57,674 nt of DNA. It comes from Gammaproteobacteria bacterium SCGC AG-212-F23 (GTDB lineage Bacteria > Pseudomonadota > Gammaproteobacteria > DSM-16500). The stretch is from NCBI GenBank assembly GCA_001644445.1, contig LSTE01000001.1, positions 1 to 57,674 on the forward strand, written 5' to 3'. Positions 36,314-40,392 of the stretch are shown here, one piece after another. Position 1 is the stretch's first letter. The number at the start of each line of letters is the position of its first letter. The notes beneath the pieces were generated by a model. It did no database searches. It was not told where the DNA came from and saw nothing but the letters and a program-made list of their open reading frames with translations. The position numbers and the translations under genes are program-made.

Positions 36314-37910
36314 AGATACGCAAATCATCATGTTAAAAGCCGAAAATGATGCACTTAAATCGATTATCGCGCTCGCGCCAGGTAATATTTATTGGCGTGG
36401 TATTGATGGAAAATATTTAGGGTGTAATATCAGCCAGGCTCATGCTCTTGGGCTTAAGACACCCGATGAGATTATTGGTAAAGTAGCTGGTCAAATAGCA
36501 GATGCTGATACAGCAGCAGCCGTTGATGAAATTGACTTTGAAGTCATGAACCTTGGCAAGGAGCGTACAATAGAAGAACCCATTCGCGATCTTAAGGGTA
36601 ATATTGAATATTATATTTCTAGTAAAAGACCACTTTATAATAAAGAAGGAAAAGTTATTGGTTTGTTGGGTTCATCCATGAATATCACTGCCCACAAAAA
36701 AGCCCAGGAATTATTAAAAGTTGCCAAGAAAAAAGCTGAAGATGCTGCGCGTGCTAAAACCCAGTTTTTATCGATGATCAGCCATGAAATTCGTATTCCA
36801 CTCACTAGCGTTTTGGGGTTTATTCATTTTTTAAAAAATAAAAATTTGTCTGCTGCAGAATATGATGAATATTTAAAAAATATTAGTTATTCCAGCGATT
36901 ATCTTTTATCGTTGATTAATAACGTATTGGATTATAGTAAACTAGAAGCAAAGAAGTTTAAATTAGTCTCTTTACCATTTAATTTAAAGACAACAGCAGA
37001 TTCTGTCATAGGTATAATGAGTGCGAATTCTAAAGCAAAACATATTTTATTAAAGTTAGAATATGATGAAACGTTGCCAACTGAATTTATTGGCGATCAA
37101 AATGCGATAAAACAAATATTAATTAATTTATTAGGTAATGCATTAAAGTTTACTGAGCAGGGCGAAGTCACTTTGATAATTTCTAATGTAAATACTTTAT
37201 CTGATTATTCTGAGATTAATATTTCTGTTACTGATACTGGCGTCGGTATTTCAGGGGATGCAATTAAACATATTTTTAAACGCTTTCATCAATTAGAAGA
37301 TACATACACACGCAGCCGTAGCTTGACGGGTACGGGACTTGGACTTTCTATTGTTAAGCGCTTAGTTAGTTTGCTGGGAGGAAAAATTAAAGTAAAAAGC
37401 AGTTTGGGTAAGGGTTCTACTTTTTACTTTACGTTTAAATTATTGCGTAATACGGTTGAGAGTTATCAGCAAAATACCCATTTAAGTAAATCGGGGCAAG
37501 TATCTTTCCCAAATAATGTATTATTGCTTGAAGATGATAAAATGATACAGTTTATCCATAAAAAAATGCTGGAAAATCTGGGGTGTGAAGTGACTACCAT
37601 GGATTGCGCACAAGAAGTGTTAAAAAAATTCAATCTCGATCCTCAGATAATGCACAAGAAAAATAAACAAGCAGAAAAGTTGTCAGTTCCATTTGATATT
37701 CTATTTGTGGATATTGGACTGCCAGACATGGATGGTTTTAAATTGATTAAACTGATGCGTAAGTCGGGTGTAACAGTACCTATTGTGGCTTTAACAGGTT
37801 TTTCAGAAGTTGCTGAACAAAAACGTTGTTTGCGTGTAGGGGCAGATCAAGTATTAATTAAGCCGGTGGCGCAAACCACATTAGAAGAAACCCTTAGAAA
37901 GCATTATTAG
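36297..37910 (+). CDS. PAS-domain hybrid sensor histidine kinase (PAS-HisKA-HATPase-REC)
   Basis: Start MKKINKDTQ at 36297, overlapping cysS by 17 nt (the track start 36189 is inside cysS). The PAS-like region is IYWRGIDGKYLGCN. H-box SHEIRIPL, N/G boxes NALKFT and GTGLGLS, and a receiver with DILFVDIGLPDMDG. Confidence 0.85.
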   Translation: MKKINKDTQIIMLKAENDALKSIIALAPGNIYWRGIDGKYLGCNISQAHALGLKTPDEIIGKVAGQIADADTAAAVDEIDFEVMNLGKERTIEEPIRDLKGNIEYYISSKRPLYNKEGKVIGLLGSSMNITAHKKAQELLKVAKKKAEDAARAKTQFLSMISHEIRIPLTSVLGFIHFLKNKNLSAAEYDEYLKNISYSSDYLLSLINNVLDYSKLEAKKFKLVSLPFNLKTTADSVIGIMSANSKAKHILLKLEYDETLPTEFIGDQNAIKQILINLLGNALKFTEQGEVTLIISNVNTLSDYSEINISVTDTGVGISGDAIKHIFKRFHQLEDTYTRSRSLTGTGLGLSIVKRLVSLLGGKIKVKSSLGKGSTFYFTFKLLRNTVESYQQNTHLSKSGQVSFPNNVLLLEDDKMIQFIHKKMLENLGCEVTTMDCAQEVLKKFNLDPQIMHKKNKQAEKLSVPFDILFVDIGLPDMDGFKLIKLMRKSGVTVPIVALTGFSEVAEQKRCLRVGADQVLIKPVAQTTLEETLRKHY

Positions 37911-38124
37911 AGGTCGGGATTATACTACGAAGATTAGTGCTTGGGGTGTATTCCAACTTATCAAGTTCCGCCCATGCTGCTTTACGTTCCTGGTCGGCTC
38001 TTACGGGGTCGCCTTTTACTTCTTTATATATTTTTGAAAAACGTATGAGAATTTCAATAGATTTTAAATCATAGTTTTTAGTAGCGCTGTTTTTTTTTGC
38101 TGCTTGGTCTGGTGTATCTATCAT
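37894..38124 (-). CDS. Small hypothetical protein coupled to the 754-aa ORF
   Basis: 76-aa ORF. Its ATG lies 3 nt after the TAA of the upstream gene (TAA TAA ATG). Its 3' end overlaps the convergent kinase gene by 17 nt. No recognisable motif. Confidence 0.4.
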   Translation of the reverse strand: MIDTPDQAAKKNSATKNYDLKSIEILIRFSKIYKEVKGDPVRADQERKAAWAELDKLEYTPSTNLRSIIPTSNNAF

Positions 38125-38127
38125 TTA

Positions 38128-40392
38128 TTAAATCCCCGGTGTTGGTGTTGTTGATTGACTATTAGTTACTGGTGGTACTTGCTGTTGCACTGTTGGTGTT
38201 ATTGATTGATTATTAGCTGCTGGCGGCACTGGTCGTGTCACATCAAAATATGCTGGTGTTGATTGTTGCTCATTAACTACTGTTACTGTAGTTGGTGTTG
38301 ATACCGATTGCTGCGTGTTAGTTTTTGTTGGCCCAAGTAAAAATAGCGTAAATTCTTTGATATCATTTAGATCTTCTTCGCTGTGTACCCCTGCCTGTGC
38401 TTCTTTATATATATCTTTAACGAGTAAAAAAACCTTCTTTTCTGCACGTCTTTTTCTATCATCGTCTGGTACCTTACGGTATACAGGAGGTTTGAGTGCT
38501 GTGTTTGAAGCACTTACAGGTGTTATAGGTGTTGATCCAGCTGATAACTGCTTCACAATATTGGGTGTACTCATAGGATTCGGTGCAGTGGGTGTTACAG
38601 GTGCAGAGACTGTTTTATGGCCTTTGTTATCTATTGGTGGAACATTTGAAGACGTCGATGGCATTGCAGTCAAAGCAGGACTATTTGTTGCAGAAGTCGA
38701 AATCGAAGTTGCAGTTGAAACTGAAGGAGTGGTATGAAATGGGGTAACAGTGAACATAGTTGAAGTATCGTTACTACCCATGGAGCCTGTGCTATGAGGT
38801 CTCACCGTAGTAAGAGGGCCAGTAGGGCTAGCGCCAAATGAGACTGGAGCAGAATAAGAATCCTTATGTGGATTTGGGATGATTGCAGCAGCACTGCTAA
38901 CATCCACTTGGAGAGAGGTGTGCGGTTGTTTAGGTTTAGGATTATCTTTTTTTGCTGCTTCTTTTGCCATAATGGCATTCATCTGCATTGCAGCTAATTT
39001 TTTAGCTACTTTCTCAAAGTGATCACGTGTGTCGCAGAAAATGGCCCTAATCAGGAGCTCTAAATCGTCCGGTTTGTTAGTGCAATTTTGAATATTAGCT
39101 AGCTCTCTTGCAGTTACCGTTTTTTTATTAGTAATGTCCAGATAACTTGTGAATTTTTTTGATAAATAGTCAATAGCTATTTTATAGCTTGGCATAGACC
39201 AAACATCATAATCAGTCAAGATTTTAACGCGAGAATTACCTTCAAAGGGTTTGGTTTCAGCCAATAAAGTATTTGTTTTTCCTCTCGCTAGTGTTTTTGC
39301 TGTGTCTTTGTCTTGGGTAATGTCATCGTCATGTCCGATAAAAAGGTATAATGTTCGTAATTCAGAGCTATTTTCCTGAAGAAAATGGTTAACTAAATTT
39401 TCTAATATCTTGCCTCTCGGTGTTTTAAAACGCTTATCATTCGCATCATCTGCTTTTTTAGAATCATTACCAGCTTTAATTTCATTACTTTTAGAATCGT
39501 TACTAGCTATAATTTCATCGTTACGATCTTCTAGACTGCTGGGTGGACAAAGTAATAAAACTGCGTCAGTGTCTTTGTTATAAATAGTATCTAGAAAAAT
39601 TTTATTATGACCTTCAAATTTTCTATAGGAGCTTTGCTTTGATGCGCTAAAATCAGTTTTATCAAGAATCTCTTTGGCCGTAGTACTATAAATTTGATCT
39701 GTTTTGAAAACATTTACAAAAAAATGTTTCATTGCTAAGCCAAATTTCATGATATTTTTGTGGGTATATTCTATAATAGTGCTTTTATCATCTTGTTCTA
39801 TTGGGAAAAAAGCAGTTATCCCAGGAACATCATGGCACATAAAGTGTAAGTAGGTTGCTAAAACATTAGCTGGAGTGACAATTCTTTTCAAATGTTCAAA
39901 TTCAAATTCATGCGTTTTCAATTCAGTTTCTTTTAGAGCGATTTCTGTTTGTATTACATCAGGTTTTGAAACTGTTTTTAGTTTATTGTTTAATTCTTCT
40001 ATGTTTGTTTGGAGACGTACTCTTGTTCTGTTGTGTGCTCGTTGTTTTGCTTGACCTAATAACTTTTCTATTATGAGTTCAGAAAAACTAGCATGATTAA
40101 AAACCTTAGTAGCAAGCGCTTCAAACGCAGCAAATGCTGCAGCATTTGCTGCTGAAGGTGTTGAAGAGATTACATTTTTTGAATCTAGTGCATGTACAGG
40201 TGCGTCTGGAGAAGCGCCTATATTAGGCGGTGTTGTTGGAGTGCCTGTTGTAGAAGAAGTAACAGCACCAGTATGTGCTGTACTGCTTGCTGAATCATTA
40301 TGTTCGCTAATGGCAGGTTGTGATGCGGCGGTAGATGGCAACACAGTCTGCCCTGAGTTACTAGCTGCTGTTGACGTTGTCGCACTTTTCAT
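38128..40392 (-). CDS. Large orphan protein: central globular region flanked by Ser/Thr/Pro/Ala-rich low-complexity regions
   Basis: 754-aa uninterrupted ORF with GAGGAA upstream. Residues 1-90 and ~500-754 are dominated by S/T/P/A/N/Q. There is no signal peptide, no TM and no catalytic motif I recognise. Confidence 0.75.
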   Translation of the reverse strand: MKSATTSTAASNSGQTVLPSTAASQPAISEHNDSASSTAHTGAVTSSTTGTPTTPPNIGASPDAPVHALDSKNVISSTPSAANAAAFAAFEALATKVFNHASFSELIIEKLLGQAKQRAHNRTRVRLQTNIEELNNKLKTVSKPDVIQTEIALKETELKTHEFEFEHLKRIVTPANVLATYLHFMCHDVPGITAFFPIEQDDKSTIIEYTHKNIMKFGLAMKHFFVNVFKTDQIYSTTAKEILDKTDFSASKQSSYRKFEGHNKIFLDTIYNKDTDAVLLLCPPSSLEDRNDEIIASNDSKSNEIKAGNDSKKADDANDKRFKTPRGKILENLVNHFLQENSSELRTLYLFIGHDDDITQDKDTAKTLARGKTNTLLAETKPFEGNSRVKILTDYDVWSMPSYKIAIDYLSKKFTSYLDITNKKTVTARELANIQNCTNKPDDLELLIRAIFCDTRDHFEKVAKKLAAMQMNAIMAKEAAKKDNPKPKQPHTSLQVDVSSAAAIIPNPHKDSYSAPVSFGASPTGPLTTVRPHSTGSMGSNDTSTMFTVTPFHTTPSVSTATSISTSATNSPALTAMPSTSSNVPPIDNKGHKTVSAPVTPTAPNPMSTPNIVKQLSAGSTPITPVSASNTALKPPVYRKVPDDDRKRRAEKKVFLLVKDIYKEAQAGVHSEEDLNDIKEFTLFLLGPTKTNTQQSVSTPTTVTVVNEQQSTPAYFDVTRPVPPAANNQSITPTVQQQVPPVTNSQSTTPTPGI
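39454..39521 (-). repeat. In-frame 33-bp tandem duplication inside the 754-aa ORF
   Basis: Two adjacent 33-nt units match at 27/33. They encode DEIIASNDSKS / NEIKAGNDSKK (aa 292-313). Confidence 0.85.

Follow-up and report, generated by a model that had tools for sequence, protein, structure and literature searches.

Between cysS and acnA, the 57.7-kb window analysed here (the whole stretch of 57,674 nucleotides at positions 1 to 57,674 of contig LSTE01000001.1 from Gammaproteobacteria bacterium SCGC AG-212-F23) carries two adjacent genes on the minus strand, orf754 and orf76. The larger gene, orf754, spans 2265 nt in DNA of ~38% GC and is followed in the same reading frame, after a double stop, by the much smaller orf76. 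An earlier note, made from the sequence of the window, had proposed the two as a candidate secreted or effector module. We are highly confident that they form a real protein-coding orphan pair in a variable chromosomal hot spot and, as a tentative best guess held well short of even confidence, orf754 may encode an effector translocated by a type IVB secretion system (T4BSS). The pair and its elements, given in window positions and with the open reading frames (ORFs) read on the minus strand, are as follows.

38128-40392, minus strand: orf754, gene for a 754-aa orphan protein of 82 kDa and pI 8.3 (from the ORF list, codon signal and strain comparison)
40403-40407, minus strand: GAGGA, a Shine-Dalgarno-like sequence 10 nt 5' of the orf754 ATG (read from the sequence)
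40487-40514, minus strand: candidate sigma-70-like promoter, TTGTAA-16-TACAAT with an extended -10 TG, ~95 nt 5' of orf754 (consensus scan)
40150-40392, minus strand: disordered S/T/P/A-rich N-terminal segment, aa 1-81 (composition; no secondary structure in AlphaFold2)
38956-40149, minus strand: mostly alpha-helical core, aa 82-479 (AlphaFold2 secondary structure)
39456-39518, minus strand: in-frame 33-bp tandem duplication, DEIIASNDSKS / NEIKAGNDSKK, aa 292-313 (Tandem Repeats Finder)
38464-38955, minus strand: disordered S/T/P-rich linker, aa 480-643 (composition, 62% S/T/P/A/N/Q)
38323-38463, minus strand: short charged helical module, aa 644-690, DDDRKRRAEKKVFLLVKDIYKEAQ... (43% K/R/D/E; AlphaFold2)
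38131-38322, minus strand: polar Q/S/T/P tail, aa 691-754, with four QS-x-TP motifs and ending ...TPTPGI (composition and motif scan)
38125-38130, minus strand: tandem stops TAA TAA between the in-frame ORFs (from the sequence)
37894-38124, minus strand: orf76, a basic 76-aa orphan ORF of pI 8.96 (ORF list)

The coding status of orf754 was judged with a codon model for which 27 core genes of the window served as the training set. By this model the log-likelihood of the gene was +0.22 bits per codon in frame 0, with the two alternative frames at -0.70 and -1.34. Synonymous usage, expressed on a scale resembling the codon adaptation index (CAI-like), was 0.654 within a core-gene range of 0.576-0.718, and the GC content at third codon positions (GC3) was 0.237 against a core mean of 0.284. 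Both values are host-like. Horizontal acquisition was one of the options named in the earlier note, and a recent transfer was rejected because neither composition nor codon usage shows a sign of it.

A second strain, L081 (Ga0207093_1039), was recovered from a scan of metagenome contigs and is 98.9% identical to the window over 11 kb. In L081, orf754 shows 2 synonymous and 4 non-synonymous changes (N484D, F655L, E664D and G687E) together with one in-frame inserted CCT codon (+P605), which preserves the frame and gives a product of 755 aa. N484D and +P605 lie in the linker (aa 480-643) and F655L, E664D and G687E in the charged module, so that all of the changes but one synonymous site fall in the C-terminal disordered part. 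Zero nucleotide differences were found over positions 39000-39999, which encode most of the core, and both orf76 and the TAA TAA are unchanged. A further comparison came from a second soil metagenome, run X2, in which a low-depth contig extends across the junction; this is an approximate reconstruction with 5 of its 11 substitutions listed. The contig carries a 6-nt in-frame deletion in the orf754 tail, and within the first 22 codons of orf76 it shows 12 nt of deletions with the frame preserved, accompanied by mostly non-synonymous changes. The 5 listed substitutions include none at the TAA TAA ATG and none in the remainder of orf76. All three observed indels are thus multiples of 3. The 33-bp duplication is present in two copies in the window, in L081 and in a contig of run X2, and the repeat-number polymorphism that the earlier note suggested looking for was not seen across these three strain samples. 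Judged from these sequences, the frames of both genes are maintained and orf754 is real, with the evidence for orf76 weaker and in the same direction.

Near-identical fragments of the island and its flanks were present in one further soil run and in three freshwater runs. From this the species is taken to be widespread, and every sample of it has the pair. Across the 17-kb overlap of the window with L081 (33496-50367), divergence per 500 bp ranges from 0 to 7.8% in a strongly mosaic pattern, nearly identical tracts (0-0.2%) being interspersed with divergent ones (2-7.8%), such as 46500-47499. On these alignments the mosaic suggests frequent homologous recombination in the population. A selective sweep, considered on account of the low strain divergence of the island, was rejected because the mosaic extends over the whole overlap.

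Searches for relatives of the pair returned nothing. No meaningful match to orf754, its core or orf76 was obtained in Pfam, NCBIfam, PADLOC or PHROGs, where the best profile-library matches were noise (an SDR model at E=0.085 and PHROGs at E>=0.13). A PDB sequence search at E<=10 gave no match, and a word-indexed search of 5.8e9 proteins at E<=10 returned the query alone for full-length orf754 and for its core; in the same index orf76 also recovered only itself. Exhaustive phmmer against 1.84e9 representative proteins likewise returned orf754 alone at E<=0.001. Comparison by tblastn with plasmid and phage collections gave no match, none of the 80 acnA loci or of the ORFs in their gaps yielded a relative of either gene by tblastn or phmmer --max, and there are no paralogues among the other orphans of the window. 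A look-up of contigs encoding the protein likewise gave no entry. By these searches orf754 and orf76 are true orphans with no detectable relatives, as the earlier note had it for orf754, and homology of the core to a housekeeping enzyme, which that note had named as an outcome that would speak against its proposal, was found in none of them. The protein family of orf754 is new, because nothing resembles it. Its kind is familiar, Legionellales-like genomes being known for accessory genes that are orphans and rich in disorder.

The placement of this genome derives from AcnA. Among GTDB species representatives, which do not include the species of the window itself, the best AcnA matches are 72-79% identical and belong to metagenome-assembled genomes (MAGs) labelled Gammaproteobacteria bacterium or uncultured Coxiellaceae bacterium; the top-matching MAGs also share synteny with the window. 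Identity to AcnA of Legionella steelei is 71%. From these best hits and the shared synteny, not from a phylogeny, the host is placed as an uncultured Legionellales/Coxiellaceae-like bacterium. The window itself is ordinary chromosome, running through rluC-like, yceD, plsX, fabHDG, fabF, mltG, tmk, holB, tatD, lolCD-like, comEC, smc, zipA and ligA and then lepA, lepB, rnc, era, recO, gltX, cysS, the island, acnA and hemF. The flanks of the pair are therefore core genes, as the earlier note had recognised, and the pair sits between them in an accessory slot.

The convergent arrangement of cysS and acnA in the window recurs in 20 related loci. The gap between them is only 348 and 354 bp in the closest relative (L001) and in L012, and 0.5-8 kb in the 18 other relatives, where it is filled by unrelated cargo that differs by lineage. 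Of 10 cargo proteins that were tested, 6 lack any Pfam domain; the others are a Na/H exchanger, an ammonium-transporter-kinase fusion and a SET-domain protein of a eukaryote-like class (L014). Examples of the slot are L014:6884-8263, which holds the SET-domain protein, and L051:13266-20153, with a 2295-aa protein without a Pfam domain. None of the related cysS/acnA loci contains a syntenic homologue of orf754 or orf76. In the window the cargo amounts to 4.5 kb and consists of the pair and a hybrid histidine kinase, the latter missing from the slot in most relatives.

36189-37910, plus strand: cytoplasmic hybrid histidine kinase, PAS-HisKA-HATPase-REC, convergent with orf76 (Pfam)

Given that the gap varies between lineages and carries unrelated cargo, the pair and the kinase fill a variable hot spot, and the cysS/acnA junction may be a site of effector acquisition. 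As annotated mechanically, the kinase gene starts within cysS, overlapping its end by 125 nt. Three of the 4 amino-acid differences between the kinase and its L081 counterpart (G7K, R10W and L23P) precede Met37, so that translation probably begins at 36297 (MKKINKD...) or 36330.

The junction between orf754 and orf76 reads ...CCG GGG ATT TAA TAA ATG ATA.... The ATG of orf76 lies 3 nt past the first orf754 stop, as the earlier note had reported, and the reading frame common to both ORFs is a new point. A weak GGGGA ribosome-binding site is located 8 nt upstream of orf76. Given its position in the same frame after TAA TAA, together with this weak site, orf76 is probably co-transcribed with orf754 and made by termination-reinitiation, and from the sequence the two are probably translationally coupled. 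The chance of this frame staying open for 76 codons is ~0.005. The encoded protein has a net charge of +2, and at its 3' end the gene overlaps the convergent kinase gene by 17 nt. A terminator-like hairpin followed by a T-run (37995-38011, plus strand) lies 85 nt past the kinase stop, inside the orf76 coding region; from this position, the kinase transcript would be antisense to the 3' part of orf76. Codons 9-12 of orf76 (GCA AAA AAA AAC) contain an A9 homopolymer at 38090-38098, which on its sequence is a possible slippage-prone site, and the 12 nt of deletions in run X2, at 38072-38085, are a few bases further into the gene. The short IYKE[AV] segment noted previously does occur in both proteins. 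The BLASTP alignment that contains it has E=25 in a single pairwise comparison and is therefore a chance-level match, so that paralogy between orf76 and the C-terminus of orf754 was rejected.

The shared frame also raises a different account of the locus, in which the pair is an orphan locus without an important function, either young or in decay and only weakly constrained, and orf76 is the cut-off C-terminus of a former 832-codon ORF that was split by TAA TAA. Both proteins have similar S/T/P/N-rich tails, orf76 has the lowest CAI-like value (0.577), and the terminator-like hairpin of the kinase gene falls inside it. The changes at the N-terminus of orf76 in run X2 are mostly non-synonymous, and the ratio of non-synonymous to synonymous polymorphism (pN/pS) of orf754 is ~0.5 compared with 0.08-0.13 for its neighbours, a value calculated from six substitutions only and thus from too few to be reliable. 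Set against this, a shared frame has a one-in-three prior, and an adjacent double stop needs two mutations, neither stop having changed in L081 or among the listed substitutions of run X2. Every one of the three indels is frame-preserving, and the two strains do not differ at all in the 1.2-kb core, while divergence in the flanks reaches 7.8% per 500 bp. Weak constraint and a split ORF are considered unlikely, and two intact genes, the smaller coupled to the larger, are preferred.

The ATG of orf754 is the first start codon past the upstream stop, and N-terminal extension of the product is therefore impossible. The promoter listed above is a candidate only, as the count of sigma-70-like sites in the region does not exceed shuffle expectation. 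Within the protein, the earlier note had described a core of about 400 aa between S/T/P-rich ends. The core at aa 82-479 is borne out, being mostly helical with 29% K/R/D/E and 30% hydrophobic residues. The description of the ends as almost pure S/T/P/A/N/Q suits the N-terminal one, at 72% over aa 1-90 and also over aa 1-81, the latter with 7% charged residues, and goes too far for the C-terminal one, where the figure over aa 505-754 is only 58% because the charged helical island at aa 644-690 breaks up the tract. The tail taken by itself reaches 73% and its last residue is hydrophobic. There are 19 [ST]P dipeptides in the protein, a mild enrichment (p~0.01 by shuffling), and the linker at aa 480-643 holds the majority of them as well as one PPVY. 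As a host motif of the PPxY type the latter is not significant (p=0.067). The tandem duplication was detected by Tandem Repeats Finder, in keeping with the earlier description of an in-frame 33-bp repeat, with a period of 33, 1.9 copies, 90% match and a score of 105; self-BLAST revealed no internal repeats.

AlphaFold2 was run without an alignment on full-length orf754 and on the core separately. The only confident part is a helical hairpin at aa ~116-169, with a predicted local distance difference test score (pLDDT) of ~83, and two further helices, at aa 644-667 and 672-678, were modelled at pLDDT ~50. The models support only a coarse layout, in which aa 1-81 are predicted to be disordered, 82-479 mostly helical, 480-643 disordered, 644-678 to form two helices and 679-754 to be disordered.

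Hydropathy analysis and inspection of the N-terminus gave no signal peptide, lipobox, Tat motif, transmembrane (TM) anchor or sorting signal in orf754. The top Kyte-Doolittle window of 19 residues scores 1.06, the N-terminus is not hydrophobic and aa 1-81 contain zero Arg. With no hydrophobic segment and no Arg in this region, Sec, Tat, lipoprotein and TM signals are absent, and export of the protein, if any, is therefore non-classical. A motif scan for HExxH, P-loop, CX5R, Fic, HRD/DFG, GxSxG and the E-block was empty throughout. The statement that the protein has no signal peptide, TM segment or catalytic motif, made in the earlier note, thus stands. Taken with the strain comparison, these results show a large product that is either non-classically exported or cytoplasmic, and that combines a conserved helical core with fast-changing disordered arms.

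The mucin-like S/T/P-rich ends could also belong to a secreted or surface adhesin that leaves the cell without the help of a T4BSS and is glycosylated on its S/T-rich arms. orf754 has neither signal peptide, lipobox, Tat motif nor TM segment, nor an autotransporter or type I secretion repeat domain, with no room for an N-terminal extension. An adhesin is regarded as very improbable.

A somewhat better case can be made for a protein that is not exported at all. The missing export signals are equally those of an intracellular disordered scaffold or signalling partner, perhaps working with the adjacent hybrid PAS histidine kinase, and kinase, orf76 and orf754 jointly form the 4.5-kb insertion between cysS and acnA. 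The complete conservation of the core between strains and the host-like codon usage are also in line with this. The kinase, however, is convergent with the pair and not in one operon with it, neither orf754 nor orf76 contains a receiver, HPt, DNA-binding or other signalling domain, and a bacterial scaffold without a relative among 1.84e9 representatives would be unusual. An intracellular role is thought unlikely, and is set behind translocation by a T4BSS.

T4BSSs are almost universal in Legionellales and their effector sets are very fluid and versatile (PMC8896642). Given this, along with the orphan status of orf754, its position in the slot and its lack of a Sec signal, a lineage-specific T4BSS substrate is the most likely single function, and the best guess offered here, though one in which our confidence is limited. 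orf754 would in this case be a lineage-specific substrate of a type IVB (Dot/Icm-like) system and be delivered to a protist host. Its helical core would bind other molecules or serve as a scaffold, and the [ST]P-rich arms, being disordered, would act as flexible linkers that are possibly modified by the host. orf76, probably produced by reinitiation once translation of orf754 has terminated, would be a small partner expressed along with it. It would act as another cargo or in regulation, and not as a classical acidic chaperone.

The locus resembles that of the species-specific Dot/Icm effectors of Legionella and Coxiella in its Legionellales-like host, its lineage-restricted gene and its variable slot between core genes. 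The protein resembles Dot/Icm effectors in lacking a Sec signal and in having long disordered regions and a polar C-terminal tail, and the same slot of a neighbouring lineage holds a SET-domain gene. It differs from them in having no E-block, no effector homology, no eukaryote-like domain and no recognised regulatory element, and in that a T4BSS is not found in the window. The tight coupling of a small ORF to a large export-candidate ORF is likewise reminiscent of effectors with an adjacent chaperone or adaptor, as in the class I chaperones of type III secretion systems and in IcmS/IcmW/LvgA. orf76 departs from those systems in being basic, only 76 aa long, without similarity to their families and located downstream of the large gene.

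Several observations weigh against translocation by a T4BSS. No T4BSS (dot/icm) gene is present in the 57.7-kb window, so the presence of the system in this genome is deduced only from the order to which the host belongs. The C-terminal signal of T4BSS substrates includes a Glu-rich E-block ~10-17 residues from the end, in a tail rich in small and polar residues, although many validated Dot/Icm substrates have none. The tail of orf754 has no EExxE-type E-block and there are 5 Glu in the last 100 aa, as the earlier note had already remarked for the motif itself. In the 308 nt upstream of orf754 neither TTAAT-N6-TTAAT (PmrA-like) nor GTAAA-N6-GTAAA (CpxR-like) occurs; the missing PmrA/CpxR element says little for so distant a lineage. 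NCBIfam with its effector models, Pfam, PDB and the two large protein collections identified no described effector family or eukaryote-like domain in orf754. IcmS and IcmW are small acidic proteins (PMC8896642), and orf76 is basic, unlike adaptors of this type, which weakens the earlier suggestion that it is a chaperone. The AlphaFold2 models, with pLDDT of 35.3 for full-length orf754 and 36.6 for the core, are uninformative. No RNA run was found to contain orf754. An orphan in a hot spot is, moreover, compatible with many other functions.

A more ambitious form of the proposal is that orf754 founds a new family of effectors that are delivered by a T4BSS and largely disordered, its helical core having a novel fold. 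It might then act in a protist host by mimicking short linear motifs through the 19 proline-directed [ST]P sites, the PPVY beside an RKRR basic cluster and the four QS-x-TP tail repeats. orf76 would be a small basic protein of a new type, a co-effector or a regulator, whose translation reinitiates past the double stop. We regard this fuller picture as quite unlikely, and as clearly less probable than the plain T4BSS substrate.

On the acnA side, the pair is bordered by a repeated element that is found elsewhere in the window.

40693-40830, no strand assigned: RPE4-like palindromic repeat pair, two inverted copies, between the upstream region of orf754 and the acnA stop (Tandem Repeats Finder)

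The window contains 7 exact copies of the 27-mer GATCCCGCGGACAAGCCGCGGGACGAC, with 0 expected. Two copies, at 40715 (minus) and 40793 (plus), make up this pair and the others are at 9347, 13781, 44473, 47458 and 48061. In run X1 the depth of the repeat word is ~13,600 against 64 for the flanking DNA. One of the other copies is read through at the 3' end of a 260-aa ORF (48034-48816) as ...DPADKPRDD..., and the tail of this ORF scores 25.2 bits against TIGR03777 (RPE4), for which the cut-off is 23.95. By this match the flanking repeat is a Rickettsia-type palindromic element (RPE4) in a gammaproteobacterium. It shares with RPE4 its palindromic form, its high copy number and the translation of another copy within the 3' end of an ORF. 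The likeness concerns the flanking repeat only, not orf754 or orf76, and the host differs in being gammaproteobacterial and not Rickettsia. Matches of Rfam miRNA models to the palindromic repeat were judged spurious, and Rfam gave nothing else.

A variable slot that adjoins a high-copy palindromic repeat and holds a large gene with a small one coupled tightly behind it could be taken for the remnant of a phage, plasmid or defence island, the pair then being, for example, a toxin-immunity or defence pair. The cargo block contains no integrase, transposase or tRNA, and its composition is host-like. PADLOC assigned 0 families, with no known defence or toxin-antitoxin model matching the pair, and PHROGs (at meaningful E-values) and the plasmid and phage collections were equally without a match. 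A mobile or defence origin is regarded as very improbable, and a lineage-specific substrate of a T4BSS is retained as the favoured, if tentative, function of orf754.

Several other ORFs of the window have no Pfam or NCBIfam family. These lie at 16647-17825, 44555-44992, 48949-49671, 50736-52016 and 26474-27243 (392, 145, 240, 426, 115 and 132 aa) and are possibly further lineage-specific accessory genes. The 260-aa ORF that contains the translated repeat copy has a pN/pS of ~0.54 between strains. Upstream of lepA, a 142-aa ORF (27607-28035) matches Pfam Cpta_toxin, the membrane-bound CptA/YgfX family.

Should orf754 not be translocated, it would be one more bacterial ORFan, showing the limits of sequence and structure prediction for proteins without relatives. 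If it is translocated, it would represent a sequence-novel effector from the part of the Legionellales that is uncultured and environmentally widespread, and a further candidate host-interaction protein that is dominated by disordered arms and not by a recognisable enzyme domain. In that event the cysS/acnA junction, where one lineage already has a SET-domain gene, would stand out as a hot spot for the acquisition of effectors, and MAGs could be mined for others at this site.

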